Shown in pieces: positions 16,694 to 56,828 of a DNA stretch of 64,000 nt (positions are counted from its first letter, which is position 1; the number at the start of each line of letters is the position of its first letter). A model generated the notes under the pieces. It made no database searches. It was not told where the DNA came from and was given only the letters and a program-made list of their open reading frames with translations. The stretch is from Antedon mediterranea (lineage: Eukaryota; Animalia; Echinodermata). The translations under genes and the position numbers were made by a program. The DNA lies in the NCBI RefSeq assembly GCF_964355755.1, contig NC_092673.1, positions 32,795,648 to 32,859,647 of the forward strand, in the 5' to 3' direction.

Positions 16694-19600
16694 TTAAATG
16701 TCGTACACTTTTTTCATATCTTCCGTCGCTTCTTTCATTGTAATATCTTTCCATCCGTCTGGTATATCAGCCAATTTACAATCGTAGTAATTAGCAAGTT
16801 GAGTATTGTATTTTGCCATAAACCATTTCCAGAACATCTCTGACTCGCCTGGAAGTGGTTCAATTTTCCATGATGCATAGCGTTCATTCACAGTCCTATA
16901 ATTTCTGTAATTAATCCATTCCTTGTTCGTATGTTTGTTTCTAAAGCGATAATCAGACAATACTGCAGTTGTGCATATGTCTGAGTTCAGTTTTTTAGAT
17001 TCCTCCCATCTATATCCTGCAACTCCTTTCGGTCTGTGACAATCTGTACGATGATGATCATGGATACCATTAAGTTCACATAATGCAAAACAAAATGGAC
17101 ACACCTCCTGGCAAGCTAGTAGATCAGCTGTAAATAAGTCACAACAGGTTGTGTTTATTTCATTGAAAATGCTACTATCATACTCTTTAACTATGGCTTC
17201 TTCAGTTTTCTCTAGTTCAGTTAATAATTCATCGCAAAGTTCTTTCAAATCCAGATCTCTTTCCTCCTCAAAAAACCTAATGTTTGGTTTGACGCATAAA
17301 CCTTTATTTATGCGTTCGAGTAAAGTTGACCACCATGGTTTCATTGTCATAGCACATTCCGATTTTAAAGTAAAGATAGCTTGTTTTAATCCACTTACTG
17401 TTTCATGAACTTTATCACTATGTATTTTTTGTAGTACAGACGTACCGGTTTCATTATTGTGTAAACACATTCTCTCTATTTTTTCAGAGGTGAACGTTCT
17501 GATGCACTGTATTGGATTAGACAAATATGGCACAAAAGATTGAAAATTGCCTTTCTCTGCTATTTCAATCAGCATCCATGCATGAAGAGACATCTTGCTG
17601 GAAAACCCTTTACCCGAACAGTGTCTTAGATAGTCGATTATTCCAAGTTCGCATTTTTTCGGAAGAGATGTTTCAATAGCACTTTTAAGCTCTCGGGATA
17701 TAGTCAATGCCACCTTAACAATTATGTGTAGATCTTTACATTCTTCTTTGAACATTTGCCACAAATCTTTTCTTTTAGACTCCATGTATAGTCTAGGCTC
17801 ATTTTCGCGCTTGTATTGTTCCTGAATTCTTTCTAACCTTGGTATTAGTTCAACCTTGTAAATGCACACGGCTAGTCTAATCTGTCCTTGTTGGCTAATG
17901 GAAACTTTCTCACCTAGTTTTATCATTTTGAGTTCGCATGATAAGGAGCTAAGAAGTTTATGTCCGAATTGTTTAGTGTATTGCTTTCCTTCCTGTGCAT
18001 GGATTGCGATCTCTCTTGTAAGATTCTCTATTATGCGTTGTTTAAAATAATTAGCCTGATTCACATATGCTTTTTTGCTCACGGAACCACCAGTAATGTT
18101 TCCAAGAAATTCAACAGCCCGTCTAATAAAATCTGATTCGCTTTGGCCTAACAACAAATCCGTTTCTTGCACGTTAGTATCAGAAAAAGTGTTCTTTAAT
18201 ACCTTAGCAACTTCCTTTGCGTCGTTTTCTAAGAAATACTCGCCAGTGATTTCTTGAAAAGACTCTTTTATATTTACGTAATCATCACTACTTGGTATGA
18301 CAGAAACCCACGTATTCCAGTGTGTAGCGAATTCCTGTTCAAGATCTTCATCAGAGAGGTGTTCATTTCGATGTTTGTCGGCCAACTCTTTAGCTTTTTG
18401 ATAGATGACTTGTTCCTGCTTCTTAATATTTGCGTCAATGTCCGCTCTTCCAATTATTCTTTTTTGAGTAGATTTAAACACTTCATTCAGTTCCCTTTCA
18501 CTTTCCCTACAAAGATCTTGGAGTTGTATTTCTATCTTGCCTTTCCATTGACACGCTTTTATTTCTTCTTGAAAGTAAGTTGCCATACTTGTCTGAAAAA
18601 AGTCAATGTCTGCCTCTAATTTCTTCAAGTAAGTGTCAATGATGTTCTTACCGTCTTCTTTCATCTTTTCAGCTGTTAGTTTTTTGCATTCGGTTTGAAT
18701 TCCATCGCTGTGCTCTAGTGTGCATATTCTGAATGTACGGGCATGTTTCACAAATTCTACATTCAAAGCAATAAAAGCTTGGATTTCCAGAGAATTTTTG
18801 AAGCTGAATACAAAATTTTCACATATTATGGCATTCCAAAGATCAGTCAGCAATATTGTGAATTCATCTATATGATTAGGTTTGGACTTCTTCATCAATT
18901 CCAATACTTGTTTCTTCACTTTAAGAATGCCTTGGCTGTAACCAGGATTAGGGGGCGCCATCGGTGGTTCTCCTTGCCAAAGAGTGGAAATGTACATTAT
19001 ATGTTCATTTTCTTGAAAATGAATGACGTCAGAAAACGATTCATATCTGTCACTGCAATGCTCTGCTTTAGCTGCAATTGTTGTCATTTTATCTAACTTT
19101 TCTAGCATACTTCTTTTTTGTGTGGTGGTCTTATCATCTGCTGTCACATCAGTGATGTTTTGGTGTACAAATAAGCAGCTTGGATTGATATTAACATTTT
19201 CCATTTTCATAAAAGCATGCACAGCAATCTGAAGTGTGTCCTGCATGTCTGTTGGGTTTTCTCCCATAATATTTATTATGGTAAGATCGCCCAAACCAAT
19301 CACGAGTGTGGCTAGTTCATTGTCATGACTGTTGTTCTGTTGATCACTGTCGAATTCTGGAGATCGCAAACCCTCAGTGTCAACCACCAGAATAAGGTCA
19401 CAGTTTGTTTCTTTTTGTAATTCTGTATCTAATGATACTAGCTGGGCGAAAATACCTTTAGTACATCTTCCGGCACTAACGGCAAATTGTAAACCAAACA
19501 TGGCATTTAACATGGTTGATTTTCCGCTGCTTTGAATGCCTAGTACAGACAACACAAACATCTTTTTATTGCCAATTTGACATTTAAGAGAATTGAATAC

Positions 19601-21444
19601 AGCTTTAATCCAGGTGAGAGGCACGTAAACCGCATCACCGTCCATCAGCTCAATGGGATATCCATGTAGCAACATTTCAGCAGCAACTTCTGGTAAGTGT
19701 GAATTATTAAATTCACCAGTTGACAATTTCAAAGCTGATGACATTTCATAAATTTGTACAATTTCTCTATTGAAATGTTCTAATCCTAGTGATTCACGTG
19801 ACAGTTTCTCTTCAAGTTCATCAAGTTCAGTTTGTCTTGATGTTAATGATGCCTTCGATGTGCCTGGTTTGTTTTTTCTTAGGTTACATAGGGCATTCCA
19901 TTTCTCGATGTACTCTGTACGTATTGGCTGTAACTTTTCAATGCTATACCGATCGGTCATTATCTTAACAAACCCAAAGTAATATTTTCTGTTTATAAGT
20001 GTGTTTGAGAATGAGCCTCTAAACAAGTCATATGTGTAATGGCCATCTCTGTGTTTTCTTAACTGTGTGTGACGTAGGTCTAGTATCTCTTGTTGTAGTC
20101 TATCAACATAGTTTTCAATTTGCATATTTCCTTTTTTTAGTAGCCGATACTTTTCTTTTTTCTTTTCTCCAAGTCGTTTTGTTACCATTTGCACGGGTAG
20201 CTCTTTTTGTTTTCCGCTTTCTACATTATTTATACGGGAAAGCAATGCGTCGGCACTACTTTTCATTTTGGAACAATCTTGTACCAATTCGTCAACGTGG
20301 AAATTCATTTCTTGTGCCTTTTCAATGCACGTCTGGATTCTCTTGTTGTTTGCATTTCTCCGTTTACCTTCCTGAAATTTAGATTCAAGCAATTTCCAAA
20401 TCTCGGTGCTTATTTTCAGCTCGTTCTTATTTGATGACATTGAAAATTGTATTTGTTTCTTTGCCTTATCTTTTTTGCCTTCCATTTTAACAAACACTTC
20501 TTGTAACTTCGGTCCAGGAGAACCATCTAAGATAAAAATCACGTCACCTTTTTGCTTGTACAACGATTCAAGCAACGAGACGTCATCTTGGTTAAAATCA
20601 GCATCAGCAAATGACACAAATACCACAGTAACCACCGAGATAGCGGATAAGAATTGTGTCTGATCTTTAAGCTTAGATGCATTACCTCTCAAATTTATGA
20701 AAGTTAGTGCATCTGAAAAAGTGTGTTTCTGTGTAGGAAGGTACCACGTCATTTCTAATAAACCATTTGTTAGCTTTCGTTTTAAATTACCACCTTTGCA
20801 CCCAGAATTAAAGAAAATGTCATGTTTCTGCTCATTAATGACACAGTTGACAATTTTAGATTTGGAAATGTTAGGTCTTCCTAATCGCAAAGCAGACAAA
20901 ATCGGTAAATCTTCTTCTACCATTGATTTTTCACAAGATAAACCTGAACTTGTTTTCCATTTCTTTGTGATTGTGCTCATTCCCCACACAATCAGTTCCC
21001 ACTCTTTGTCCCGTACGTCCGTGACCGGAATCAGCAACGGAATAGCTAACTGGCACAGCGACAATTTTTCAATAAAAATTTGTCTTAAAAAATTGTCACA
21101 ACACAAAAAAAGTGCTGTTAGTGCATCTAATGGACTTATTTGACTGTTATCATTATCATTTGTTTTTTGGTCTTGTACAACAGAAGAAAATGAAAATAAT
21201 TGATCTTCTTCCTCTTCTTTCGTCGGTTCTTCCAAATCAAAAGATCTTCCTTCGTAGTTACACATCATAATATTTTGCAAAATGTACCATGGAATTTTAC
21301 TTGGATCATCATTGAGGTCTGCTGGTAAAATCTCATGTTTGGAAATTACAAATACGTCTTCACGAGTTAGTCCTCTGGGATGATATTTTGTTAGTCCTAG
21401 ACGTTCAACCACTTGATGTATGTTGGATGTATCTGCCATCTTAT
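16694..21444 (-). CDS. GVIN1: Very large inducible GTPase (VLIG/GVIN1/URGCP family), intact giant terminal exon; 1581 aa from the in-frame ATG at 21439
   Basis: P-loop GIQSSGKST, SAGRCT, DTEG, DNELAT and LW.G.PPMAPPNPGYS motifs, and C-terminal CPFC..C..H..HRPKG and WKWF. Phase-1 acceptor TTTAG|ATAAG at 21444. The symbol denotes family, not orthology. Confidence 0.93.
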
Positions 21445-29385: not shown

Positions 29386-29618
29386 TATACAATATTATTG
29401 GTCATACTATAATATTACGATAATGTTACATATTCTTCTTCTACCTCCTTACGTAACAAATAATAGTAATACAAGAAAGCACATTAAATCGATTAAAGTT
29501 TAAGAAAAACATAATAATTATACATTTGCATGAAATATAATTCAAAAAGGTGTAATTGACTGTCTCCTACACACTGGGTAGGCTTAGAAACCCCTAAATA
29601 CAACCAACGTTGGCTTAA

Positions 29619-32242: not shown

Positions 32243-35200
32243 TTAAATGTTGTACAAGTTTTTCATATCTTCCTTTGCTTGTCCATCGTACGTAGGTAAT
32301 ACACTTCCATCCGTCTGGAATATCAACCTCCTTAGCATTGTAATAAGCAGCAAGTTCGGTATTGTATGTTGCCATAAACCATTTCCAGTACATCCAGTGG
32401 TTCAATTGGCAATGATGCGTAGCGTTCATTCACACTTTTTCATTTCTCATGCGTGTGTTCATTGTTAAATCTATGATTTGACAATATATTAACATCCATG
32501 CATGAAGAGACATCTTACTGGAAAACCCTTTACTTAATAAATGTCTTAGATGATCGATTACTCCAAGATGGCATTTCTTTGTAAGTTATCTTTCAATAGC
32601 ACTTGTAATCTCTCGATATATAGCTGATGCGACTTTTACACTCTTCCTTTAAACATTTGCCACAATTCGTCCCTTTGAGACTCCATGTATAGTCTCGGGT
32701 CATTTTCGCATTTGTGTTGCTCCTGCATTCTTTCCAAACTGGGTATCAATTCAACCATGAAATTACATATGGACAGACGAATATTACTTTTTTCCTTAAT
32801 GCAAACGTTTCCTTCTATATTTATCTCTTTAAGATTACTCGATAGTTCTGAAAAAAGGTCAAATCCGATTTGTATAGAGTATTTTCCTCCATTCAGTTTA
32901 TGATTTGAGATTTTTTTTTTTAGTCTATTTAGAATGTCTTTTTTAAAGGAATTTGCGACAAACAAATAACGTTGTTTGTTCATGAAACCATACCCTGTGT
33001 TCATAACCCGAAATGATCTAAAATACAAATCCTTTTCAACTATTTCAGTTTGGGAAAGGTCAGACTGCAATACACAATTAACGTCTGACTGATGATGTCG
33101 TAAGTAAAATTCTCTTAAAATGCTTTCAAAAGACCTTCTTACATCTGCGTAATCATCAACAATTGGTATGGCACAAACCCACTCAATCCAGTTTTTAGCA
33201 AACTCACGCTCAAGATCTGCATCAGATAGTTGTTTACCTCGATACACGTCGGCCAGGTCCTTAGCTTTTCGATAAATGAATTGCATGTCAATGTTACCGG
33301 TAGCTCTTACAATTCTTTTATTTCGAATAGATGTAAATTCATCCCTCAGATCTTTTTTAATTTCTTTACCAAGATTTTGGAGTTGTAGCTCTATTTCAAC
33401 TTTCCATTGACATGCATTTTTTTCTTCTTCTAAATACGATTTCATATTTGCTTCAAAATCACAGATGTCTTTCTGTAATTTCTGTAAGTAACTGTCAAAG
33501 ATTTTTTCTCCATCTTGTTTTATCTTCTCAACGGTTAGTTTCTTACATTCATTTTGAAGACTGTAGCTATGTTCCAGTACGTTTCTTCTGAATGTACGGG
33601 CATGCCTCACATATTCTGCATTCAAAGCATTATAAGCTTGAATCTCAAGATAATTTTTGAAACTGAATACAAAATCTTGACATAATATTGCTTTCCAGAG
33701 ATTGGAAAGCAGCGTTATAAAATCCACGATACATTTAGCATTAGTATCCGCTATAAATGTCAAGACTTTTTTTTTACTTGAAGAATGCATTTGCTGTAAC
33801 TAGGATTAGGTGGTGCCATTGGTGGATCTCCTTGCAAAAGGCTGGAAATGTACAATATATGTTTGTTTTCTTGAAAATTGATGACATCAGAAAACGATTC
33901 ATATTTTTCACTGCAATTTTCTTCCTTGGCTGCAATTGATGTGATTTTATCCAACATTTCTCGCATACTTCGTTTTTTAGCAGTATTCAAAGCAGATTCT
34001 GTGACATCAGTGACGTTTTGGTGTACAAATAAACAGTTAGGACTGACTTTAACATTATCCATCTTCATAAAAGCATTAACAGCAATCTGAAGTGTGTCTT
34101 GCATGTCTGTTGGATTTTCTCCCATAATATTTATTATGATAAGATCACCTAAACCAATCACAAGCGTGGCTAGTTCATTGTCACGGTAGTTGGCCTGTTG
34201 AATGCTAGCAAATTCAGGAGATCGCAAACCTTCAGTGTCAACCACCAGAATGTAGTCACATTGTGTCTCTTCTCTTAAACTTTTATCTAATGACACCAGC
34301 TGAACGAATATACCTTTAGTACATCTGCCAGCACTAACAGAAAATTGTAAGCCAAACATGGCATTTAACATGGTTGATTTTCCACTACTTTGAATTCCTA
34401 GTACAGATAACACAAACATTATCTTGTTGCCAATTTGTTCTTTAAGGGAATTGAACACGGCTTTAATCCAAGTTATAGACACGCAGCCTGCATCACCATC
34501 CATCAGTTCAATGGGATATCCCTCTAGTAACATTTCAGCAGCAACATCTGCTAAGATAGAGTTTTCGGTGTCACTTGTTGATAATTTTAAATCTGATGAC
34601 ATTTCGTAATCCTGTCCAATTTCTCTATTAAAATGTTCTAATCCTAATGATTCCCGTGATAGTTTCTGTTCAAGTTCATCAAGTTCATTTTGTCTTGATT
34701 TTAATAATGCTTTTGACGTTTCTTGTTTGGTTTTTCTATTGTTGCATAATGCGTTCCATTTTGTAATGTAGTTCTCACGTATTGGTTGTAACCTGCTAAT
34801 GCTAAATCCATCGGTCATTATCTTAACAAACCCAAAGAAATATTTTCTTTTTAAAGGTGAGTTATTGAATGAAGCTCTAAACATTTTTTTTTTATTTTAT
34901 TTTATTCAATTTTCAGGTACAACAATACATGACAACACAGCGGTGCAACCCTGAGGATTGCCATGAGTGCAAAGCACTATCGAGATGGCTCTCCATATAC
35001 TGCACTAGAACATATAAGACAAACATTATACACAAGATGCTGGAGTTGTAAATTGTCATGAGAAAAAAACCCTGACATATGACAGGACTTGAACCCATGA
35101 CCCTTAGATTGGTAGCCAAGCATCATAACCACCAAGCCACAGCTCCACTCACTTGTGTGTACAACAATCACGTCTTTGTTGTTTAATTGTTTTTGACGTA

Positions 35201-36511
35201 GGTCTTCTATCTCTTTCTTTAGTCTATCAACGTAGTCTTCGATCTGCATCTTTTCTTTTCTTTGTAGCCGATGTTGTTCTTTTTTCGTCTCTCCAATTTT
35301 CACTGTTGCCATCTGCAAGGGCAGCTCGTTTTGCTTTCCCTCTCGAGTTACGCGCTCGAGCAATTTTTTGGCACTCTCTTTCGCTTCCAAACAATCTTTC
35401 GTTTCGTCAACGTGGTAATTCATTTTCTTTGCAACTTCAATGCACATCTCGATACTCCTAAAATCATTCTGACTAATTAAATTAACTTTAAGTAATCCCC
35501 AAATGGCTGAGGCTATTCTCAGCTCGTTCATGTTTGATGATTTTATAAAGTCTACTTGTTTCTCCTTATATTTATCACATTTCTTTATTGTTTGTAACGC
35601 CTTCATAAAATCTTTTCCTGGAGATCCATCTAAGATGAAAATTACGTGACCCTTTTGTTGGTATAATGATTTAAGTAATTGGGTGTGGTCTTCGTTAAAA
35701 TCAGCACAGGAAACAAAGGCAATAGTGACTTGTGATATCTCGGATAAGAAATTCGTCTGACTTTTAAATGTCAATGCATTTCCTCGCAAATTTATAAAGT
35801 TTATTGCATCTGAAAAAGTACCCGGCTTTGTGGGAAGGTACCATGCCATTTCTAATAAGCCATCTGATAATTTTTGTTCTAAATTACCACCTTTGGACCC
35901 AGAATTAAAGAAAATGTCATGTTTCTGCTCATTAAGGACATAGTTGACAACTTTAGATTTGGATAGTTTTGGTCTTCCTAACCGCAAAGCAGAAACAATC
36001 GGTAACCTTTCAACCACCATTGATTTTTGACAAGACAAGCCTGAACTCGCTTGCCACTTCTTTGTGATTTTTCTCATTCCCCACACAATCATTTCCCATT
36101 CTTTGTTAGGTACGTCCGTAACTGGAATCAGTAACGGAATAGCTAACTGACATATTGACAATTTTTCAATAAGAATTTGTCTTAGAAAATTGTCGCAGCA
36201 CAAGTAAATAGCTACTAGTGCATCTATTGGGCTTAATTGATTTGACACTTCTTCTTCTTGTAGAAGAGAAGATATTGAGAAGTATTGGATTTTGTCTAAA
36301 TCAAAAGATCTTCCTTCTTAGTTACACATTATAAGATTTTGCAACATATACCATGGTATTTTCCTTGGGTCGTCATTCAGGTCATCTGGTGAAATATAAT
36401 TTTCTGAAACTTCCAATACTTTTTCACGAGTTAAGTTTCTGTGAGAATTTTCTTGTAGTCCCAGATGCTTAACCACCTGCTGATGCATGTGCAATCTCTC
36501 TTTCTTCTTAT
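32243..36511 (-). pseudogene. GVIN1: Decayed VLIG/GVIN1 exon (copy 2)
   Basis: Homologous to copies 1 and 3. Lesions: TAA at 36318-36320 replacing Tyr of CNYEGR, SINE insertion at ~34884-35153, frameshifts at ~33770 and ~32640, and a large deletion after SLHAWML (~32480). Confidence 0.92.
34884..35153 (-). mobile_element. tRNA-derived SINE inserted in VLIG copy 2
   Basis: Pol III A box TGGCTTGGTGG (35129-35139), B box GGTTCAAGTCC (35085-35095) and an A-rich tail. It is absent from copies 1 and 3 at the homologous position. Confidence 0.85.
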
Positions 36512-37040
36512 CTAAAGAAAATAAAAAATAATATTGTATTTCAATATTTTAACTTGAGGTTTAATGGAAGTTGATTAAAAGTGCACATTAAAATCGTTTA
36601 GAGACCATATTGCATTATTTTTCTTTCAAATGTAGCACACATAAACTTTATATAATAACAACAACAACCAGCAACGCGGGAACGATTTTAGAAATGGGGG
36701 GTGGGGGTGTATCCATGATTTTAAGTAGGGGATGAGGCTTAGACACCAAATATTTGAGCGACAGGCGCCTACATACGCCTGTACTGAAAAATCTTCTTGA
36801 TATTAGTGTATACATTTATTTTAAGTTCCTTTTATCATATACATGCATATCTATATATTATAAAAGAAAGAGAAAATATGAATATTTTATGGATGCTATA
36901 TTTTTATACTTTAGAGAGTAATCCATCAGGTAAACAGTATGGTACAGATAGGTTCGAACCCATGACTATCATATGCTATTCCGATATCATCATTACACCA
37001 CCACTCGCTGGTATATACAGCACCCGCCGCGATTCCAGAC

Positions 37041-38120: not shown

Positions 38121-39035
38121 CTCACTACAACGTCTCACTATTTTGTTCTACAGATTTGTCTCTGTTTTCAAGACCCCAATTTTTGCATTCATCATCGATT
38201 CCATCTTTCATAAAAAAGTAATCACATGTAACTTATTTAAATTATCTCTATACAACGGGTTTTCAGAAGTTCTCTGAACCTATCGATTTGACGCTTTTTC
38301 TGCGACTGGCAGTGGCAGCAGAATCTAAAAATTAATATATTTTAGAACACTCTATGGCACTGTTATTATTCGATACTGGGCCTACTGTATAAAACATTTC
38401 ATATTTTAATTTATCAGCATTCGAAAACTGTATCAAACATGTATTGCTTTAGTTATCAACATTCGATATACTGTAGGCCTACTCTAATAAATGCTTTTCT
38501 TTTACTTATTACTGTATGCCTTTGTAAGTGTCTGCTTACCGGACCGTATCGTTTCCATTGCGAATGATTCGAAGATAGGCCTTGTCATATTATTATGTTG
38601 TGATTCTCTGTGTTTAGATAAGGATGCTTTAGACCAGGTCCGCCTTATATTATTAGCCAATCAAAATCGTATAATTTTTGGAGGGAAAATATTATCCTCC
38701 TCTGAAGCCTAAAATGTGCATGTCCAGTATAAAAGTGGAATGTAATAGATATTAAGGAGAAGAGAGAATAAGATCAGAGTAGATAAATGGAAAGATGATA
38801 AAGAAAATATTAAGGCTTGACTGGTAGTGGTAGAAAGATGTATTAATCGAATTACAAGGAATAAAAGTTCTAGTTGAGTTAAATATACTTTTTGTATGAG
38901 TTATCATTCTGTGACAGCTGTGTACGTCGCGTGGAGTTATATACGCCTGAGAAAGCTCGGAACCAACTAAAATAAATTCACTACAGGCCTACACATATAA
39001 TTTTTCGAATAAAAAGAAATTCATATGGTACTTAC

Positions 39036-39561
39036 CTTTAGCAAGTAGTAGATGCTTTGCACGTTCATTAAGACGACTTGAAAATGTCTCTACTTTGTCT
39101 TGTTTATCTCCTAATTTGTTGTTACTCTCTAAGTGAAAAACTACATCCCACATATTATGAAAGCCAACATGTCTCAGTTTGTAGTAGGCAATAACTTCAT
39201 CCATATCCTCTTTCTGAACTTGTTGTAAGGCTTTAAACAGCCGTTTTAGATATGGTGATAATGGCTGTATATCGTCAGAATTCTGAACTTTGTTTATCTT
39301 AATATAGTCAAGTACAAGATTTTCAGCAGCCTTAACTTGTGTTAACTCCGCAATCTCCAACAACAGGTTGACATTAGTAGGTAAGATGTCACCTTTCCGC
39401 TCAAGTTTATTGAACAAATCATGTGCTATTAAACGATCGTCTAATTCTCCGAAAGGTAGGTGATCGCATAAGCAGAATTTGAGCAAACGATACTGATCAC
39501 CCTTGTAGTGTTTACCCAGATTAGCGTTTAATTCCGTAAAAATCGTATTCAAATCTGCCAT
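39036..39561 (-). CDS. Coding exon for a death-fold protein, tandem death-effector-domain (DED)-like, 175 aa, ending in a phase-1 donor
   Basis: DED-like pattern LKF.LCDHLP..L.....DLF..LE..G.I...NV.LL.EI, then a second helical repeat. Acceptor TTTTACAG| at 39581, in-frame upstream TGA, and donor AAG|GTAAGT at 39036. Domain assigned by eye. Confidence 0.75.
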
Positions 39562-43960: not shown

Positions 43961-43970
43961 TATATTACTT

Positions 43971-44283: not shown

Positions 44284-45258
44284 GTTTAAAACATCACTAA
44301 TTACAGACTGACTTTCCAATCTTTCTAATCCATTTGCATTAATATTTGCAAACAATGTCCAACTACAGTTAAATTAAGTTATTGATTTAGAATTTTTTTC
44401 CAAAATGTAAATGACATTCGTAAAATAACATTCATAAGTTGTGGTTGTACTCATATTTTAAGAGTTGCAAAGTTAATTGGGTTTTATTAAAGTTCGGGAT
44501 TACAATGCAGTCATAAAATACTGAATTCTAGTGTAAAGAATTCCAAATTCCACTATTGCTATTGTATTGTAACCTTACATATTGATTTATGAAATTAATA
44601 AATAATCTGTATAATTGTGTATAGATAAAAGTATTAGCATTATGTCAAACGTACATGCTGCAATGTAAACATGAATAAATGCAATGTTAGTACAACTACT
44701 ACAATCTTTTGTGATAGAGTCACGCGTAAATTTTTTTTTTTAATTCATTCACATTTATATACTGTACACATTTTTAAAAAGTATTATGAAGCATAATTTC
44801 CACTCAAGGTGTAAATCCAAAGAAAAATTACTGATCAAAACGATAAAAATAAAACAGCCAGAAAAATTAGCATCAGTGCAAATCAAAGTATAGATATATA
44901 ATATATAACAATAATAATGTTCTCCTTCTTCTTGCTAGCTACATGTCTAGCTCCCTATACTCTTTCTCCTTGTCATCCTTTCTATGAGAACTTTGTGATT
45001 ATGATAATGCTGCTCTTTCATTTGCATCATAATACAATTCAAAATGTGTGTACGCATAAAATGCACAAGACCGTAGGCAGCATGAGGCAGACGAGGACAT
45101 TTTCACCACCAACCCCAATTTTCCAGCACCGATCGTCATATTTTGTATTAATAATTATATATTATAAAAGCACTAACTCTCGCTACGGCATTGATACATC
45201 ACAGTTCCAACTTCACGTGACAAATTTGCGTTTACCAATCTGTCCTAAATTTGATTGT

Positions 45259-48200
45259 TTAAATGTCGTACAATGTTTTCATATCTTCCGTCGCTTCTTC
45301 AATTGTAATATCATTCCATCCGTCTGGAATATCAGCCTCAGTACAACTGTAGTATTTAGCAAGTTGAGTATTGTATTTTGCCATAAACCATTTCCAGAAC
45401 ATCTCTGACTCGCCTGCTAGTGGTTCAATTTTCCATGATGCGTAGCGCTCATTCACAGACCTATAGTTTCTGTAATTAATGTATTCATCATTCGTATGTT
45501 GATTCCTAAACCTATAATCAGACATTACCGCAGTTGTACATAAATCTGGGTTGAGTCTGTTAGATTTCTTCCACCTGTATCCGGCAACACCTTTTGGTCT
45601 GTGGCAGTCTGTACGATGGTGATCATGTGGACCATTAAGATCGCATAGTGCTCTACAAAATGGACAAACCTCTTGACAAGCTAGTAAATCAACTGTAAAA
45701 AAGTCACAACAGGATGTGCTTATTTCATTGAAAAGTAGTATACTATCATAATCTTTAGTTATAGTATCTTCGACGCCGTTTAGTTCCAATAATAATTTAT
45801 CGCTAAGCTCTTCCAAATCCAGGTCTCCTTCTTCATCAAAAATCCGAATGTCTGTTTTAACACATACAGCTTTATCGATGTGTTCAAGTAAGGTTGACCA
45901 CCATGATCTCAGTGTGTGAGCATCTTCATTACGTAAACTAGTGATAGCTTGCTTTAATCCAGTTACTATTTCATGAACTTTACAACTGTATATATCTTGT
46001 AGTACAGAAATACCGAATGTGCCATCCTTCTGCAAACACATATTCTCTATTTGTTCAGAAGTGAACGTTTTGATGCACTGTATTGGATTAGACAAATACT
46101 GCACAAAAGAGTTGAAATTGCCCTTATCTGCTATTTCGATCAACATCCATGCATGGAGAGACATCTTACTAGAAAATCCCTTACTTGAAGAGTATCTTAG
46201 ATGGTCAATTACTCCAAGTTTGCATTTCTCTGGAAGCGATGTCTTAATAGCACTTGTAAGCTCTTGAGTTATAGCCAATACCAGTTTCACAATTATGTGG
46301 AGGTCTTTACATTCTACTCTGAACATTGACCATAATCTTTCCTTTTGAGACTCCATGTACAATCTCGGGTCACTTTCCCGTTTGTATTGTTCTTGCATTC
46401 TTTTTAAGCTGGGTAATAATGTAACCTTGAAATTACACACAGCTAGTCGGATGTTTCCTTTTTCCTTAACTTTAACCTTTTCATCCATTTTTATCTCTCC
46501 AATTTCACATGATAGTGTGCTAAAAAGCTGAAATCCTAGTTGTTTCGTATAACCTCCTCCATTCTGTGCATGATTTGAGATTTGAGTTTGCAGTGTTTCT
46601 AGAATTTGCTGTTTAGTGCAATTAGCCTGATTCACATATGTTACCTTACTTGTGTAACCAATCCAATGAGCAATTCTTCCAGCCACAGTGCCAAAATACA
46701 AATCTCTTTCAACAACTTCAGTTTGAGAAAAGTCAGATTGCAATGCACGGGTAACTTCTGATTTATGGTTTTCTAAGTAATACTCTTCGGTGATTCTTTG
46801 AAAAGACCTTTGTATATCTACAGGATCATCAAGTCTTGGTATTGCAGAAACCCACGCCTTCCAGTTTTTAGCAAACTCACTTTCAAGATCTTCATCAGAG
46901 AGTTGTTGATTTCGATACACATCGGCTAGTTTGTTAGCTTTTCGATAGATATCTTGTTCTTGCATTTAAATGTTGGCATCAATTTCAGCTCTTCGAATTA
47001 TTTTGTTTCTAATAGATGTAAATAGATCCATTAGTTCCTTTTTAACTTTCTTACACAGATCTTCGAGTTGTAATTCCATTTTACTTTTCCATTGACATGC
47101 CTTTGTTTCTTCTTCAAAATAAGATGCCATGTTTGATTGAAAACTGCCAATGTCTCCCTCTAATTTATGTAAGAACGTGTCGAGGATTGCTTCCCCATCT
47201 TCTGTCATCTTTTCAGCTGTTAATTTCTTACATTCAATTTGAAGTCCGTGGCTGTATTGTAGTGCATTTCTTCTGAATGTACGGGCATGTTTCACATATT
47301 CTGCATTTAAAGCATTAAATGCTTGGATCTCGAGGGAATTTTTGAAACTGAATACAAAATCTTGACATAATATTGCTTTCCAAAGATCAGATAGCAGTGT
47401 TGTGAACTCATCTACACTTTTGGGTTTTACATTCTTAAGGAATTCTAGGACTTGTTTCTTTACCTGAAGAATGCATTTGCTGTAACCAGGATTGGGAGCG
47501 GCCATCGGCGGATCTCCTTGCCAAAGGCTAGATATGTACATCACATGTTCGTTTTCTTGAAAATGAATTACATCAGAGAACGATTTGTATTTTTCACTGC
47601 AATTCTCTGCATCTGCTGCAATTTTTGTGATTTTATCCAACATTTCTCGCATACTTCTTTTTTGTGTCGTATTCAAATCAGATGCTGTGACATCAGTGAC
47701 GTTTTGGTGTACAAATAAACAGCTTGGGTGGATATTAACATTATCCATTTTCATAAAAGCATGTACCGCAATTTGAAATGTGTCTTGCATGTCTGTTGGA
47801 TTTTCTCCCATAATGTTTATTATGGTGAGATCACCTAAACCAATTACAAGTGTGGCTAGTTCATTGTCACGGTAGTTGGCCTGTTCGATGCTGCCGATTT
47901 CAGGAGACCGCAAACCTTCAGTGTCAACTACAAGAATATAGTCACATTGTGTGTCTTCTTTTAAACTTGTATCTAACGATACTAGCTGGGCGAATATACC
48001 TTTAGTACATCTGCCGGCACTAACGGCAAATTGTAAACCAAACATGACATTTAACATTGTTGATTTTCCACTACTTTGAATGCCTAGTACAGATAACACA
48101 AACATTCTTTTATTGCCAATCTGGTCCTTAAGTGAATTGAACACGGCTTCAATCCAAGTGAGGGGAACGTGGACTGCATCACCATCCATCAGTTCAATGG

Positions 48201-49967
48201 GGTATCCCTCTAGTAACATTTCAGCAGCAACTTTTGGTAACTGACTTTTTTCTTCTTGTTTTTCATTTAGATCTGATAACATTTCGTAATTCTGTCCAAT
48301 TTCTCTATTAAAATGCTCTAATCCCACAGACGTACTAGATAGCTGTTTTTCAAGTTCATCAAGTTTATCTTTCATTTTTTGAAGTGATGCTTTTGATGTA
48401 TCTGGCTTCTCTTGTTTGTGGTCACATAATTCGGTCCATTTCTGTATGTACTCTTCACGTATTGGCTGTAGCTTTTGAAAGCTATATCTATCGGTCATTA
48501 TCTTAACAAATCCAATGAAGTATTTTCTTTGAATAGGCTCGTTTTTAAATGATTCTCTAAACAACGTATATGTGCAATTACTGCTGCGCTGCCTGTGTAG
48601 TTGCAACTGTTTACGACGTAGGTCTTTTATTTCTTTCTTGACGATTTCAACGTACTTTTCAATTTGCATATTTTCCTTTCTTAATAATTGATGTTGTTCT
48701 TTTTTCATCTTTCCAATTTCCACTGTTACCAACTGTAAGGGGAGCTCCTTTTGCTTTCCTTCTTTATCTATGCGCTTAAGCAACATGTTGGCAATTGTTT
48801 TTGCTTCTGAACACTCTTTTACGATTTCGTCAACGTGACAATTTAATCTCTTTGCTACTTCCATGCACGCCTCGATACTCTTATAAACACTTTCTTGCTT
48901 ACTTTCTTTAAAGTAAGATACAAGCAAGTTCCAAATGTCTGTACTTATCCTTTGTTCGTTCATGTCTGAGTACATAAGATACTGCACTTGTTTTTTTAAG
49001 TTTCTGAATTTTTTTTTAATCCCACTTAAGGTGCTTTTTAGAACGTTTTCAGGAGTTCCGTCTAAGATAAAAATTACGTGACCCTTTTGTCTATACAATG
49101 ATTCAAGCAACGAGGCGTCTTTGTCACTAAAATTAGCGCTGGAAACAAATGCAATAGTGACCGTTGATATATCAGTTAAAAATTGTGTCTGAAGTTGGAA
49201 ATCCGATGCATTTCCTCGCAAATTTATGAACGTTAGTGCATCTGAAAAAGCATTCGTGTTTTTCTGTGAGGGAAGGTACCATGCTATTTCTAGTAAGCCA
49301 TGTGACAATTTTCGTTCTACATTGCCACCCTTGCACCCATAATTAAAGAAAATATCATGTTTCTGCCCATTAACGACATAATTAACAACCCTAGATTTAG
49401 ATATTTTAGGTCTTCCTAATCGCAAAACAGACACAATCGGTAACTTTTCTACCACCATTGATCGTTCACAAGATGAACCTGAACTTGTTTTCCATTTTTT
49501 TGTGATTGTGCTCATTCCCCACACAATCATTTCCCATTGTTTGTCTTCTACGTCCGTCACTGGCACCAGTAATGGAATAGCTAACTGACATATCGAAAAT
49601 TTTTCAATTAAAATTTGCCTTAAAAAGTTGTCACAACACAAGAAAATAGCTACCAGTGCATCAATTGGACTTATTTTACTGTTTTCGTTACTTTGATCTG
49701 ATTTTTCTTTAAGAATAGAAGAAAGTGAAAATGATTGATTTTTTTCTATGTCAAAACATCTTCCTTCATAGTTACACATAATCAGATTTTGCAGCATGTA
49801 CCAAGGTATTTGGCTTTGTTTATCACTGAGTTGTTCTGGTGAAATAACTTCTTTGGAAACTACAAATACATCTTCACAAGTTAGTTTTCTTGGATAGTTT
49901 TTCTGTAGTTTTAGATATTTAATGTGGAATGATACCTCTGTATTCCTCGGTGAAGGTATAGTTTTAT
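45259..49967 (-). CDS. GVIN1: VLIG/GVIN1 giant exon (copy 3), full length apart from one in-frame TAA at 46966-46968
   Basis: ORFs 46966-49992 and 45259-46965 abut in the same frame (DANI*MQEQ versus DANIKKQEQ in copy 1). GTPase motifs are intact. Phase-1 acceptor TTTTTCAG|ATAAA at 49967. Confidence 0.88.
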
Positions 49968-50707
49968 CTGAAAAAGCAGAACACATGTTCATAGATAATT
50001 ATTACTTCCACCAAGAAAGTTATGTTTTCACACCTATATTTTGCGTGGACATGTAACATTATTTATCCGAATATTGCCAAACTTGGCCACAGTTATCCAC
50101 CATCTAGAGGCAGTTTAGTTTTGAGGAGGCAGAGTTAAAGGTCAAGGTCACAATATTATATCATCATTGCTGTGGATAGTGACAACTATTATTAATAGAA
50201 TTATTTTTAAAAAGATCGAGTAGGTCAAAACTGGACTGAAATTTAGAACCAACGAATAGAAGGTAAATGTATACCCATTCATGTAAAACTCCTATTTGCT
50301 ATAGTTCTTAGTGCTAATTGCACTCAGACAGAATAATAATTGTAAAAAAAAAAACCAGTTTTTTTCTCTTCGGAAGGAGATTTTATGTAGTTTATAGTGT
50401 TATATCTATTTTTTAAGATTCCGCCGTGTTAAATGTAAGCTTCCAGCTCCACATAATGATGGGTTTTTGATAGAAATGATTTGACTTTTGATGGATATAG
50501 GCCTATAGAATGAAAAATCTAGATTTTTTTTTCAGCTGGGACCTATAAATTATAGTCGAGTTTCCATTTAGCAAAAACGTCAGTCTCTAATACTATAACT
50601 GCTGCTTGCTTTCAGTTAATAAATGAGTCATCTCTTGTGACGTAGCGGGCTAGAGCAGCAGCGTGAAAAATGATAACCGTGTTATGTTTACATTTAATTA
50701 GTATAAA

Positions 50708-52126
50708 CTAGATGGTCATGGCCACAGATGGTTTTCGAATACATAGTAATTTCACCTTTAAAAAATTGGCGACTTCAAATGTACATGCAATACAATAATA
50801 CATGTCGTTTACAGGAACGAATAAATAGACACATTGATTTATCTACTCAACTAAAATTAGCACCCTGGGAATTACTTCCGAAAGAGAAACTTGTCACAAA
50901 ATAAGACCAATTGTTTTGAAACAAACTGAATTTGTGTTTTGTATGCAACATGAGGGTTGAGGGTTGAGGGATAGGGAAGAAGATGGGTGCAAAGACGAAC
51001 AATTTTTAAATATATTCTTTATCCATTTAGTAACGAAATTTATACCTCCATGACTAAACACAGTAAAACATTGCTATTTAATACTTTGTTGAAACTGTCA
51101 CCATTATAGTCGATTGAAATAGTACACTAATACGACGTTTATATTTTTTGTACAGTAATTAGATTATTAATTAATATTAACGTTCAGAAGGAACTGTCAG
51201 TAATAAAGTAAACATCTCTATTCGGGGAATATCGTAAATTCGCTTTAATCGTCAATAATTAATTATCTAACTTAACTTAATTAGTAGGTCTAATGGTTTT
51301 GAATTGTTTCTTAGATTAGAGCCAATTCATATTTAAGTTGGTTTCTAACCACCAAAGTTGTTCTGCGTTTAGGGCATGTGATCCTTCATACCGTACCGTA
51401 GGCCTATCCCCTAATGGCTTTACAATGCTACTCATGCCAGTGAGTGGGAGGGTGGTGGTGTGGGTGGTGGTTTAACTGCAATAATAAAGATGATTGTACA
51501 TAATAGACGGCGACTGGAAAGGCTAGCTCATTATCCGTTAAAAAAAATACCTATATCCAACCTCTGGAGCACAGATTGGATAAAATGGATCGAATTTCGT
51601 TTATGACTGTACAGTACTTGTCTTTACGACGCCTGAGGGAATAGACACTTGTGGAACAGAGATTGGAATGTTCCATTCATCGCAGATCAAAACAGTTGTA
51701 TAAATGTATATTAAATCTGTCAAAATAGTATTTTTTTAAAGACAATCGGCCTGTCTTCAACATTATGATGCTATACTTGAGCTGTTCAACCGGTTTTCAG
51801 CTATTAAAAACAATTATCGTAGGAGGAGATAGGAAAATGCGAAGCATCCTCGTATTATTGTGTGCAGGTATTTTTTAAGAGGACATATATTAGACAGTGT
51901 ATACTACGGTCGGAAAACACCCCTATTTGGGGCAAATCGTTGAACCTAAATTCGTTTTAATTGTCAATAACTAATTATCTAACTCAATTTAATTAGTAAA
52001 CAGGCTTACATCTGGTGGTTTAAATCAGTACCGTGATTCTAACCAACTTTACATACCATCGAGTAAACATTCTAGAAAAAACGCGCGATTTACCGAATTT
52101 TGCCCTTACGTAAATTTATATATAGA
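50708..52126 (-). mobile_element. Non-autonomous Helitron, second copy (uninterrupted, 3' hairpin deleted)
   Basis: A|TCTATATATAAAT 5' end and CTAG|T 3' end. It is colinear with 8617-9352 plus 12779-13488. Confidence 0.85.
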
Positions 52127-52464
52127 TATAAACAATCCTATTTTTATAACAACGGTAATTTTGAAAAGCACATCCTTTCCTCACTTGTAATAAAATAAAT
52201 GAAAGATATATTAGCATAATGAATACTTTACATCGTCTAAAAATATCCAGACGGTAAAATGAAATACAGTAGGCCTACCGTGACCTGATATAAAAACGAT
52301 CACGAAACGTATAATGATCATGGAAATGTATTTAGTGCGCCAAATACAAAATCGCGAGATGCAATAAAACCCAATCGATTTAAAAAACACGACCGGTATA
52401 ATAATGGATCGAAATAGCAGAGCTAGTGGCGCGAGCCATAACAAATTTTAAAATAATTCTTATT

Positions 52465-52605
52465 TGTTGGGCCCGACCGTCTGTGGTCCCGGTTGTCTTA
52501 CCACCTTGTTGGCCCGATCGTCTCACACTTTGAGCCCGATCGTCCCACGCTTTGGGCCCGATCGTCTGGAACTGATCGTCCGTAGTCCCGAACGTCTGTT
52601 CCCCC
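52465..52605. repeat. Array of CCCGATCGTC-like repeats, probably a DNA-transposon terminus
   Basis: About seven spaced copies of CCCGA(T/C)CGTC. No partner end was found. Confidence 0.5.
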
Positions 52606-53394
52606 TCGGGAAGCACAGTTTTACCACAGGTGTATTCAAAGATTCGCCGCCCGGAAGAATACATTTATTTTTGGTTACGCACTTTTCAGACACTGCAAAA
52701 TCTATTCCTCTTAGATATTGTATAATATTTCTGAAATTACATACAATAGGTACGTCATGCGTGTCATAGAAGTCTTACTTTCTGTTTCCTTTCAATAATG
52801 TAGGCCTAATGATTTTGTTATTGAAAAGTGAGGGGGACATCCGCCACTAACAAAACATGTGGGTGGAAGGAGCCCTCTCTCATCCAGGATAATAATAATC
52901 ATATAATCAATATAATAATACTGATAATGATTATTTGATCAAGTGTATTTCTGGTTATTTTTTCTGTTTTTTATAATGTTTTATTTTATGTTTGGCCGAT
53001 TTATATAACACGAACAAAATAATCTTCTTTTGGGCTTCATTAGAGTTCTCTTTAAAAAAAAAACGAAAATAAATGTTTAGATATTTTTATTATACAGGTC
53101 AATCTTGGCAATGATAATGATAATAATAAATTTGTTCAGTATGTTCGGAACCGTTTGATTTAACAGCAGGAACAGTCTGAGAGATAAGTCGACTTATTTT
53201 TCATCAATATTAATATGATTTTTGTGTGAAATATACTTTGGTACAAGTGATTTTTGTGATGCACTTTCGAGTCAGAGGTCAATGAACTATTTTTTCACGC
53301 AATTTTACAAATATCTTTATTTTAAGGCACAGTGTTTGATGACGTGTTACTCGTAGCTCTTCTTCTATTGGTACTCTTTTTGATATTCGTCGCT

Positions 53395-53677
53395 GCAGAA
53401 CTGAATCTTCTTTTCAATCATATATCCCACGTGTTACCAGAATTTGGAATAACTTACCCAGTGAAATCCGCAACTTAAATCCAAAACTATGGAAAACTCT
53501 ACCCCTCGAAATACGCTCATCAAAATATGTTATCACATTTAAAACTAAACTCAAAACTCATCTCTTCAGAGAAGCATAATCACACGCTACTACTTGCACA
53601 GATCTTGGAAAACACAGCGTTTTGAAACCTTTGTCTCTTGCGCTTTATAAATGTTATTTATTATTATTATTATTATA
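53395..53677 (+). mobile_element. LINE 3'-end fragments (L2-like)
   Basis: WN.LP.EIR and FKTKLKTHLF coding remnants, followed by GCGCTTTATAAAT and an (ATT)n tail. Confidence 0.7.
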
Positions 53678-54188
53678 GGTGAAGAATTGTTTGGCTAGTG
53701 AGTATGTTTGTCGGCGGCTGGAAAATTAAAAATGTTGTTTATTGGAATGAATGAAAAAAAGAACCATAATTCAAAGTGTCAGGTCAAAAAGTTGAGCAGC
53801 GTTGTTTGTAAGAAATATTTCTGGTTTTTGTTAGTCCACTAGTTGGCGTTTTGATTTTTTTCTGAACCGAGCTGAAGTATTATAAGTATTATATACCATA
53901 TGCGGCAAAAATGTTATCTTTCTATCTTTTTACTAATAATATTACTGTACTTTGAATCAGTCTAAAACATAGACTATCTAGATACTTACATCAACTACTT
54001 TAAGCATAGGATTACATAAGAAATAAAAAACGTTATTTTAGATGGACAACATTCAGCTTTGTAGTTCCATGATAATTAAAACTAAATTAAACAGTTAACA
54101 ACAGCATTATTAATATGTTATGAAATATTTACATATAAACAAATACAAAAATGATTAAAACTAAAATACAATTATTGTATTTACTAAC

Positions 54189-54261
54189 TTGCTTCTGTTA
54201 ATGTTTCTTCCACATTTACAGCATCATTTTCAAAACCAGGTAAAAGTTCGTCATCTGGCAT
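54189..54261 (-). CDS. 73-nt acidic linker exon (MPDDELLPGFENDAVNVEETLTEA), phase 0 to phase 1
   Basis: Acceptor TGTTTATAG| and donor A|GTTAGT. It bridges the phase-0 kinase donor and the phase-1 VLIG3 acceptor exactly. Confidence 0.72.
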
Positions 54262-54486
54262 CTATAAACATAAGATAATTATATAAGTGTTTCAACATTT
54301 GTACCAAATACAAGAGCACATTAAAATAATAAAATGACAAAAGAATATTCTAAGATGAGTAAATGTACAAATCAAATGAAAATATAATAAAACAGTGGGA
54401 TACAGTTATACAATGGAGAAATAAGTTTTTAGAGGATATTGGACAATAAATGATGTGGAAGCAGAACATTCATTAGGCTATATATA

Positions 54487-54650
54487 CGGTCAACTCTCCC
54501 AATATGGAACACCTTTGGGGTGGGTAAATATGTCTGGTTTTCCGAAAAGTCTGGATTTCAGAATGTATTTTTAATGGTAAATTAATTTTAGACCTTAAGA
54601 AAAGTCTGGTTTCCGGTTTTTAGAGAGTCCGGTATTAGGAGAGTTGACTG
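54487..54650. mobile_element. Tc1/mariner/pogo-like MITE with TA TSD
   Basis: TA|CGGTCAACTCTCC ... GGAGAGTTGACTG|TA. Confidence 0.8.
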
Positions 54651-55167
54651 TATTAGAATGTGTAGAAAACCAATAGATATTTTTCAAATAAACATTTTGA
54701 GCATTTCAAATTTTTCAAAATTGTTGCGCTCTCCAAGTCTGTGCGCAAAACTCGTACGAAGCGTAGAAAGTGCAGCCCCTACTGTAGACCAAGCTTAATA
54801 TAGCATGTGCATGTTACGATGCGTTGCGCAATAGCCTAACTTGTCACCGTGACAAATCTAGCACATTCATCATACATCTGGTGTACACATTTTTGCTTAT
54901 TTTCAAACTTTCAGTTTCTTTTTCACAAATTCTTATATTCATTTTGTTAAATACATGTGATCCACTTGCAAACACTGATATTGCCATTTACATTAAATAA
55001 ATATAAGAATTATTATAGTTTGTTTGAATACATTTAGATGAAAATGTTGTGAATTCATAGTAGAGGATTTGGATCACTTTTTATGATCTACAGTAGTATC
55101 ATAATCTAGGGAACCCCAGTCTGATGTTAGTCAATTGTCATTGAAAGAGATATTTAAAAAAACACAC

Positions 55168-56034
55168 CTCTATAAAATCTTTGACTTTAATCTTTAATGT
55201 AATAGACAAGTCCTGCATGGTTTGCAGTATATCTAAAATACTTGGCCTTTTCATTCTGTCTGTCTCCCAACAACTATGTAGCATATCCTTTAACTTAGAG
55301 GGCATTTCATCTAGCGGGTACATACCATCCACCCTCTCAGTTTTATCCGCTTCAAGCAAGGTCCTCATTTCCCATATCACAACACCGTAAGAATATATGT
55401 CTGAACGCTTTGATACCTTTATCTTTGACCCACGGCCTTTAAAAAAAGCCTCAAAGTTTTCAGGAGCCATCCATGGAAGAGAACCAGTATATGTAGTAGT
55501 AACGGTCTTATCAGTTAGGCAGGAAATTCCAAAGTCACAAACTTTCAAATTATGTTTATCAGTAATTAAAAAATTTGGTGATTTGATATCTCGATGAATG
55601 ATATCAAGTTCATGAAGATACTGTATTGCAAGAGCGCCTTGCCGGGTCCAGGTGAAAAATTTGTCATCCTCAAGAAGTTGCTGCTGTTCTCGTTTCTGGC
55701 TTAAATAATGAAATAATGACCCATTTGCTGCATATTCCATTATCATACAATCCATATGATCCTTCTTACTAACCCCTAGAATCTCAGTTATGAAATTTCT
55801 ACCAATGTGTTTTTTTTCTTCGTCAGCTTTAATTTTTCTTAATGTAACAATTTCAATTTCTCGAAAATGGTTGAGACGTTTAATTGCAACTGGCATATCT
55901 TTTTTAGTTTTCCACACCCCTTTCAACACACTGCACGTTCCACCATGTCCAATAAGTTCTCCAAATTCAATATCATTACATTGTATCTCTAAAATCTTAG
56001 GATATGGTTTTAACACTGTTTCATTACTTGCCAT
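55168..56034 (-). CDS. TKL-group (MAP3K/MLK/ZAK-like) protein kinase exon, 289 aa
   Basis: GHGGTCSV, VAIK, HRDIKSPN, DFG, GSLPWMAPE and SDIYSYG motifs. Acceptor CTTTGCAG| at 56056, in-frame upstream TAA, and donor GAG|GTGTGT at 55168. Confidence 0.92.
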
Positions 56035-56300
56035 TATTGTTGCTTAAAGGGGAAATCTGCAAAGAAAAATAAACATATACATTATTTTATATGCAAGTTA
56101 TCTTCATTGTTTACTACTCATACTTTCTCTTCACCAGACTGTCCCTCCTTTGTTATACTTCCTTCAATTGACTAAGGCAGCTCATATTATTACTTATTGC
56201 AAAGAAAAAGGATTAGTGCTACCCGAAAGCTCTGCAATTCCTTTCTGGCTGTTTTAATCCATCGTTTTGATTTAGCTTTTTGCTCATATTTTTTTGTATA

Positions 56301-56709
56301 TGTAGCGATACTCTAAAAGCAGTATTATTATTTTATTGTATTTAAGTTCATATTTACTTAGTAGCTTGTATATCCTCAATGATCATGCCTTAGTTTGATT
56401 TTACACATTCCATTCTCTGAATTAATTAAGAATGTACCTCCTTTATCTAGGTTTCCATAACAACTGGTCCATTTTGTGGGTTTTGTGGTGGGGAATAAGA
56501 AAGTTTTATAGCCTGTGTTATCTAGAAATACTGTGAAATTGGATAGATGAGTCAGATCTGTGTAGTTAGTATTGCGTTTTAAAAGTAAGCAGTTGTGTTA
56601 TAATTAATAACAGCATTTTGTATTGGAATTCTGTGTTTTATCGATTTTGTAGCTGAAATTGAGAACCTGGGTTTAAGTTATTATTGTCATTATTTTGTGA
56701 AGAGCTACA
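56301..56709 (+). mobile_element. 5' LTR of a Gypsy element (409 bp)
   Basis: TGTAGC...GCTACA terminal inverted repeats, followed after 2 nt by a PBS. Confidence 0.85.
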
Positions 56710-56711
56710 AT

Positions 56712-56725
56712 TGGTGCCGTGACCA
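56712..56725 (+). promoter_or_regulatory. Primer-binding site (tRNA-His type), 5' part; the remainder is at 60135-60143
   Basis: TGGTGCCGTGACCA joined to GGATT gives TGGTGCCGTGACCAGGATT, complementary to a tRNA-His 3' end. Confidence 0.85.
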
Positions 56726-56828
56726 CACACAGTCACCATGATTCGATCGGAGTAAGACGCTTACACAACGAGCTCCTGAAACGCACTACTTAGCATACTA
56801 ATTTTCTCTAGGCCAATCACGACAAGCC

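Follow-up and report, generated by a model that had tools for sequence, protein, structure and literature searches.

A kinase exon ahead of a giant GTPase exon

The window analyzed here, a stretch of 64,000 nucleotides (nt) from contig NC_092673.1 of the crinoid Antedon mediterranea, is AT-rich animal DNA (~32% G+C) and carries three VLIG/URGCP-type giant GTPase genes on the minus strand, here named VLIG1, VLIG2 and VLIG3. Upstream of VLIG3 lies a kinase open reading frame (ORF) of 301 codons (55138-56043, minus strand), the sole kinase found by tblastn in the 64 kb. The kinase exon, a short acidic exon and the VLIG3 exon (56034-55168, 54261-54189 and 49967-45259, minus strand) join in frame (Table 1). 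The spliced product reads ...KDFIE/MPDDELL...TEA-N-KTIPSPR... and comprises 1313 amino acids (aa), the last of which are EIDANI before a TAA codon.

This product is a letter-for-letter match to the NCBI model P0003 (A. mediterranea, 1313 aa), which was also recovered at 100% identity when the kinase exon was used as query among longer proteins. The NCBI name of P0003 is only "interferon-induced very large GTPase 1-like", although its listed families are kinase, URGCP and URGCP_GTPase. The predicted kinase-VLIG gene is therefore already in the public annotation, where it is unremarked and uncharacterised, and the three-exon model of the NCBI pipeline is a second, independent prediction of the kinase-VLIG splice structure. 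The splice sites, phases and lengths (867 and 73 nt) that the original prediction gave for the exons were all reproduced in the sequence, as was the length of 1313 aa to the internal stop; its figure of about 1882 aa with this codon read as sense agrees with the arithmetic, which gives 1882. We give an even chance to the reading that the three exons are spliced into one in-frame kinase-VLIG protein, a real fusion at least from the haplotype that carries GAA at the polymorphic codon of Table 1.

Table 1. Positions of the features of the locus within the window (a slash marks a splice site).
Feature	Position	Strand	Details
Putative 5' end of kinase exon	56035..56058	-	Acceptor-like tttttctttgcag/, 22-nt leader, then ATG (context ACAATAATGG); inferred from sequence
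Kinase coding exon	55168..56034	-	289 codons, 867 nt; ATG at 56034; phase-0 donor GAG/GTGTGT after 55168
Intron 1	54262..55167	-	906 nt, GT..AG
Acidic linker exon	54189..54261	-	73 nt, phase 0 to 1, MPDDELLPGFENDAVNVEETLTEA; flanks tttatag/ATG and CAA/GTTAGT
Intron 2 of the model	49968..54188	-	4221 nt, mostly interspersed high-copy repeats
Two in-frame ATGs in polypyrimidine tract	49984..49992	-	MNMCSAFS/DK...; at 49992 and 49986, 24 and 18 nt upstream of the acceptor
VLIG3 giant exon	45259..49967	-	Phase-1 acceptor ctgctttttcag/AT at 49968/49967; final stop 45259-45261
Polymorphic codon	46966..46968	-	Stop (TAA) in the window; other contigs have GAA (Glu), VLIG1 has AAA (Lys)
DED-like exon upstream of VLIG2	39031..39561	-	In 192-codon ORF 38989-39567; NCBI model P0148 links it with pieces of VLIG2
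VLIG2, decayed copy	32295..36533	-	Frameshifts and deletions; split tblastn matches in three frames
VLIG1, intact 1581-codon paralogue	16694..21439	-	ATG (ATAAGATGG) right behind the common acceptor

The kinase and linker exons belong to a kinase-Death-domain family

The kinase exon matches the Pfam family PK_Tyr_Ser-Thr (PF07714) with an E-value of 1.1e-40 and 140.1 bits (cut-off 23.1), and PF00069 with 139.2 bits (cut-off 31.7). Its best solved relative is ZAK/MAP3K20 (E 4.8e-32), followed by TAK1 and DLK. The motifs VAIK, HRD and DFG of the kinase and GKST and DTEG of the GTPase, which had been called intact from the letters, were found so in the translation, and those of the kinase, together with its APE motif, line up with their counterparts in ZAK. 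The glycine loop reads GHGGTC with a cysteine in place of the third glycine, and the same is seen in the paralogue P0123. Judged by these features, the kinase is TKL/MLK-like and looks catalytically competent.

Among proteins of comparable length, the kinase has five close relatives. Three are from Antedon: P0123 (90% identity, 321 aa, on another chromosome), P0126 (82%, a 185-aa fragment on the same chromosome) and P0124 (70%, 409 aa). P0125 (65%, 407 aa) and P0127 (54%, 402 aa) are from Anneissia. P0124, P0125 and P0127 share one order of parts: the kinase, a linker (...DFIE or DFIQ, MPDDRPLP...VEE..PQA) and then a Pfam Death domain (E 8.7e-5, 4.8e-7 and 6.6e-5, respectively, all with at least the 22.6 bits of the cut-off). 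In P0123, residues 291-313 match positions 54261-54193 of the window with 61% identity (tblastn, E 0.001). Since the relatives of the kinase combine it with the same linker and a Death domain, the acidic exon is the linker exon of this kinase-Death-domain family. The homology of the linker with P0123, P0124 and P0125 places the acidic exon with the kinase and not with the VLIG part. The junction KDFIE or KDFIQ to MPDD is shared with the same three proteins, and the linker of P0127 is related, so that homology supports the predicted splice from the kinase exon to the linker exon.

As the crinoid paralogues carry a Death domain behind the kinase and the same linker, its exon appears to have been replaced by VLIG3 at this locus. 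When the three Death-domain tails were searched by tblastn against both strands of the whole 64 kb, nothing below E 0.2 was found except the linker exon, and the best chance matches had E-values of at least 0.25. Intron 2 of the model contains no Death-domain exon, and neither a notable tandem array nor an Rfam family was found in the region 44000-57000. P0123 is itself without Death domain, and its modelled end lies seven codons past the linker exon (GKYNTLL, then stop). At the present locus, reading through the linker with the donor CAA/GTTAGT unused gives a serine and then TAG.

In the contigs of public runs, 16 base differences were listed in the kinase exon, 6 synonymous and 10 non-synonymous, with alleles and paralogues mixed among them; Q18P, D123N and L173I match residues of P0123. 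The summed contig depth of the DNA runs is higher over the kinase exon than over the unique flanks, where summed depth is not to be equated with copy number.

VLIG3 is largely open but lacks the start codon of its family

VLIG3 matches the Pfam families URGCP (E 4.7e-76, 256.4 bits, cut-off 27) and URGCP_GTPase (E 7.3e-125, 417.2 bits, cut-off 55), and the same was obtained on P0003. Its P-loop GIQSSGKST and its DTEG motif are identical in VLIG1, with which it shares 66% identity over 1577 aa without frameshift (tblastn). Compared to 16 crinoid VLIG models the identity is 44-67%. Apart from its one stop, which is an allele, VLIG3 is undamaged across 1569 codons while VLIG2 has decayed, which argues that VLIG3 was kept open.

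The 5' ends of VLIG1, VLIG2 and VLIG3 align only at the polypyrimidine tract and at AG/ATAARA, whereas the flanking intron is unalignable. Two codons past this acceptor VLIG1 has an ATG in strong context (ATAAG ATG G); in VLIG3 its place is taken by ACT. The next in-frame ATG of VLIG3 is located 57 codons downstream, within a conserved block. Among 16 further crinoid VLIG models whose N-termini were examined, 14 have a motif of the type xVVExLGLxxYYPRKLT, and most of these 14 start about 8-10 residues ahead of it (some are longer and one starts at the motif). The two models that lack it are P0140, an ORF call starting downstream of the motif, and P0148, in which a DED exon joins further downstream. 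If the acceptor is used, translation of VLIG3, which has no ATG there, has to start in an exon further upstream, and the phase-1 donor of the linker exon fits the VLIG3 acceptor in frame.

VLIG1 and VLIG2 have homologous non-coding blocks (65-80% identity) 6-8 kb upstream of each gene, at 27862-29409 and 42804-43988, respectively. These may represent an ancestral 5' exon or promoter region of the array, or a common repeat. No counterpart was found upstream of VLIG3 in the window, which is consistent with a replaced 5' region of this gene.

The internal stop codon is a TAA/GAA polymorphism

The frame of VLIG3 is interrupted by one TAA and is open past it for 568 more codons, to 45259. The original prediction had noted an internal stop after 1313 aa and a longer product if that codon is sense; the stop lies at 46966-46968. 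Recoding was rejected: TAA does not encode selenocysteine, and TAA and GAA segregate at this place, so that the open frame is accounted for by the GAA allele.

The polymorphism was seen in contigs of four public runs, of which X1 belongs to another study and X2, X3 and X4 to one sample. At 46968, C instead of A is found in X1 and X4; X2 and X3 have the reference base, in the same contig span of 952 bases. The difference turns TAA into GAA on the coding strand and is linked to K984E at 47049. As X4 has GAA and X2 and X3 have TAA, both haplotypes occur in one sample, and GAA is also present in the other study. The reference haplotype would encode the 1313-aa protein with kinase, URGCP and GTPase domain but without the C-terminal third, while the GAA haplotype would, in the fusion model, yield 1882 aa and keep the C-terminal part of 568 residues. 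In the precomputed Pfam lists, PF26772 occurs only among VLIG models that keep this C-terminal part.

The kinase-URGCP architecture occurs in one protein model among the matches examined

With the kinase as query among longer proteins, the best 120 of 1113 matches (from 2996 candidates) were inspected, and only P0003 carries URGCP families among them. The same holds for a search with residues 1-700 of P0003, where kinase and URGCP occur together in P0003 only, among the best 120 of 381 matches (7990 candidates). Residues 1-725 were also compared exhaustively, by HMMER, with 1.84 billion cluster representatives, which yielded 191,966 matches. From the best 150 of these, 40 proteins were scanned with Pfam (all 38 that had more than one matching stretch and two long ones with a single stretch), and none combines kinase and URGCP. 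The cases with two stretches are tandem URGCP units, AIG1 with URGCP, or proteins with several kinases.

The remark of the original prediction that it knew of no characterised TKL-VLIG fusion is thus borne out, in that the architecture search for kinase plus URGCP gave no second protein among the matches examined. Literature listings and the opening lines of abstracts contained no report on a kinase-VLIG or kinase-URGCP fusion. By these comparisons, the predicted fusion is a singleton of the A. mediterranea annotation, plausibly a lineage-specific, domain-shuffled immune gene.

One gene, two genes or a relic

Several points weigh against a single kinase-VLIG protein. The junction 54189>49967 is a prediction drawn from gene structure and from an automatic model, and an in-frame fit between linker and VLIG3 has a probability of one in three by chance. 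P0003 does not prove the fusion because the NCBI pipeline can chain two incomplete neighbours without RNA support. If the acceptor is not used, the ATGs at 49992 and 49986 could start an unspliced VLIG3. Because P0123 ends after the linker, a short kinase product without Death domain is an annotated alternative, and the fragment P0126 on the same chromosome indicates that copies of this kinase decay. Furthermore, the reference haplotype is truncated. Finally, as a singleton for which none of the searches gave a second kinase-URGCP protein, even from the crinoid Anneissia, the fusion has no evolutionary conservation that would vouch for a function.

The run X1, which is guessed to be RNA, does not decide the matter. 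At 90% likeness its contigs fall into seven pieces on 44215-49073, and neither 49863-50313 nor 53922-54372 has any. With the likeness raised to 97%, contigs cover the kinase exon at 55613-55725 only, the 5' end of VLIG3 is uncovered, there are no joints and the junction of linker and VLIG3 is bridged by no contig, so the run is mute on expression.

Two separate neighbouring genes might have been chained by prediction, namely a kinase without Death domain that ends past the linker and a VLIG3 with its own start, either at 49992/49986 or in an unrecognised 5' exon. For the first of them P0123 offers a template, being 90% identical and annotated as kinase, linker and a 7-residue tail, and at the present locus the read-through of the linker likewise meets an immediate stop. 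AATAAA hexamers follow the linker exon at a distance of ~450-530 nt (53743, 53662); however, at 32% G+C they are common by chance. In-frame ATGs do exist just upstream of the VLIG3 exon, but both are embedded in the polypyrimidine tract, and the context of the first one is poor (T at -3). Moreover, all three VLIGs have the acceptor in common while the intron around it is unalignable, which argues that the acceptor is used. Separate genes would agree with the lack of any other kinase-URGCP protein among the matches examined, and also with odd N-terminal additions in neighbouring NCBI VLIG models (a transmembrane stretch in P0138 and repeats in P0137), which are possibly merged models too. Yet it would take a coincidence for the kinase gene and VLIG3 to lack parts that complement each other so well. 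We regard this explanation as rather unlikely; if it is right, the locus is a useful warning on chained models in automatic annotation.

The locus might also be a decaying relic, made of a dead fragment of a kinase duplicate and a young VLIG3 pseudogene that has lost its start and in which a nonsense allele is spreading, with a read-through transcript that yields no functional protein. The lost ATG of VLIG3 and the TAA in the reference fit this picture, as do the clearly decayed neighbour VLIG2 and the fragment P0126 left by the kinase family. The differences in the kinase exon, 10 of them non-synonymous and 6 synonymous, are not clearly those of purifying selection, alleles and paralogues being mixed. 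On the other hand, the frame is open over 1569 codons of the VLIG and 289 of the kinase except for one polymorphic codon, no frameshift is present and the identity to the paralogues is 66% and 90%, respectively. None of the catalytic or G motifs is damaged, and the GAA haplotype restores the whole frame. We therefore consider a relic improbable.

Other VLIG proteins with N-terminal additions

VLIG2 has an N-terminal addition of another kind in its NCBI model. A DED-like exon lies 2.5 kb upstream of it, which makes P0148 the second chimera model in the array, here of a death fold with VLIG. The DED match (E 1.2e-5, 25.8 bits) is below the curated Pfam cut-off of 35.9. P0148 (1217 aa) matches the window at 39561-39031 and 36149-32639 with 99% identity (tblastn). 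It may be a patched pseudogene, as its VLIG part needs model 'introns' that skip frameshifts. No second DED or kinase exon was found near VLIG1 or VLIG3.

Further cases are a CARD-VLIG protein of a gecko (P0154) and proteins that join AIG1/GIMAP-type GTPase domains to URGCP (P0249, P0376). Like the proposed fusion, the DED-VLIG2, CARD-VLIG and AIG1-URGCP proteins have a signalling or GTPase module ahead of the URGCP core, but among the matches examined only the fusion has a catalytic protein kinase as the added partner. With DED, CARD and AIG1 all found ahead of VLIG/URGCP cores, N-terminal accretion is a recurring theme in which the kinase would be a new partner. In the precomputed Pfam lists, URGCP is also combined with MACPF, in the protein P0158 of the cyanobacterium Okeania.

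Comparison with known systems

The VLIG/GVIN1/URGCP GTPases share with the GTPase part of the model the families URGCP and URGCP_GTPase, the GKST and DTEG motifs, the single giant coding exon and the arrangement in a tandem gene array. They differ at both ends: the paralogues have a short leader with its own ATG, where the VLIG3 model has an N-terminal kinase and acidic linker, and the C-terminal third of VLIG/GVIN1 (the PF26772 region) is absent from the reference allele of VLIG3. The crinoid kinase-linker-Death-domain proteins, named 'MAP3K20-like' or 'dlk-1-like' by NCBI, resemble the other half of the model, with a kinase exon that is 54-90% identical and the same linker and junction. In these proteins a Death domain follows the linker, whereas at this locus a VLIG exon follows.

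A GTPase and a TKL-group kinase are united in one polypeptide in the ROCO proteins (LRRK2 and relatives), and the idea of a kinase governed by the state of the G domain applies to these and to the fusion alike. In ROCO proteins, however, a small Ras-like Roc domain and COR are N-terminal to the kinase, while in the fusion model the kinase is followed on its C-terminal side by a large GTPase of the dynamin-like kind. Neither Roc nor COR was detected in P0003 by Pfam at E-values up to 0.1. By its domain content the predicted kinase-VLIG fusion is not a member of the ROCO family. Its origin is independent.

RIPK1 has an N-terminal kinase and a C-terminal Death domain, the same order as in the parent crinoid family, while the Death domain is missing at this locus. 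This order is presumably one of proximity-induced activation, and the same logic would apply to the parent kinase-Death-domain family. No RIPK was found among the 57 matches to solved kinases at E-values up to 1e-20.

A possible origin and mode of action

A single kinase-VLIG gene would most likely have arisen in three steps. A kinase gene copy already devoid of its Death domain, as in the 90% identical paralogue elsewhere, was likely duplicated into the tandem VLIG array; because an intron is retained, the duplication would have occurred at the DNA level. The orphan donor of the linker exon would then have taken the pre-existing 5' acceptor of VLIG3, 4.2 kb downstream, and the ATG of VLIG3 would have been lost or made dispensable.

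The Death domain of the parent proteins would gather kinases on death-fold signalling platforms. In the chimera, nucleotide-dependent self-assembly of the VLIG part would replace this clustering, by analogy to the coat formed by human GVIN1. Clustering would in turn drive trans-autophosphorylation of the ZAK/TAK1-like kinase domains, followed by MAP3K-type signalling. That assembly of the GTPase activates the kinase, which the original prediction offered as a hypothesis, is pure inference. According to a recent report on GVIN1, the human protein encases B. thailandensis in a coat, dimers via the large GTPase domains are an AlphaFold3 prediction, and the effect needs co-factors that are as yet unknown (10.1101/2025.03.24.645074).

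The DED-VLIG2 model next to it points to the same kind of link between VLIGs and death-fold signalling within the cluster. Taken to its full extent, this leads to a sensor-to-kinase immune protein in one polypeptide, in which a pathogen-coating GTPase would replace the Death domain of a RIPK1-like kinase and coat assembly would trigger MAP3K-type signalling. A truncating null allele would segregate and a DED-VLIG sister adjoin, making the locus a young hub, still in evolution, where domains are shuffled between defence GTPases of the dynamin-like kind and death-fold signalling. This picture is speculative, and we put it forward as doubtful.

To our knowledge, almost nothing is known about signalling by the VLIG/GVIN giant GTPases. 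If the fusion is true, a VLIG hard-wired to a ZAK/TAK1-like kinase, and its neighbour to a DED, would point to a signalling output for the VLIG family. The locus would also show how new architectures arise in invertebrate immune clusters, with an orphaned 5' gene fragment capturing the acceptor of a single-exon neighbour. New here are the assignment of the linker to the kinase, the replaced Death-domain exon, the ACT in place of ATG, the TAA/GAA allele, the modelling of VLIG2 with a DED exon and the failure of three large searches to give a second kinase-URGCP protein.

Repeats and mobile elements in the window

At the left end of the window, ~2 kb (301-2285) have three plus-strand and two minus-strand frames open for 400-650 codons, with a strong GC skew of -0.38; one of these frames is without Pfam family. 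The tract is probably of low complexity or a repeat without stop-forming triplets. Around the kinase and VLIG3 exons, the repeats at 50314-52568, 53020-53921, 54373-54823, 56177-56627 and 44451-45352 reach a summed depth in the DNA runs of hundreds to thousands of times that of the unique flanks, with the peak at 51667-52117. They are interspersed, without tandem structure and without Rfam family.

Directly upstream of the kinase exon and on the opposite strand lies the remnant of a retrotransposon without long terminal repeats (LTR; 56802-59685, plus strand), in which an ORF1-like ORF is followed by a reverse transcriptase (RVT_1, 4.3e-31) that is split by a stop. An LTR retrotransposon in a patch of 42-44% G+C (60307-63998, plus strand) runs off the window. 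Its parts are a PNMA-like gag (weak match), an aspartyl protease, a reverse transcriptase (2e-38), RNase H and an integrase zinc domain.

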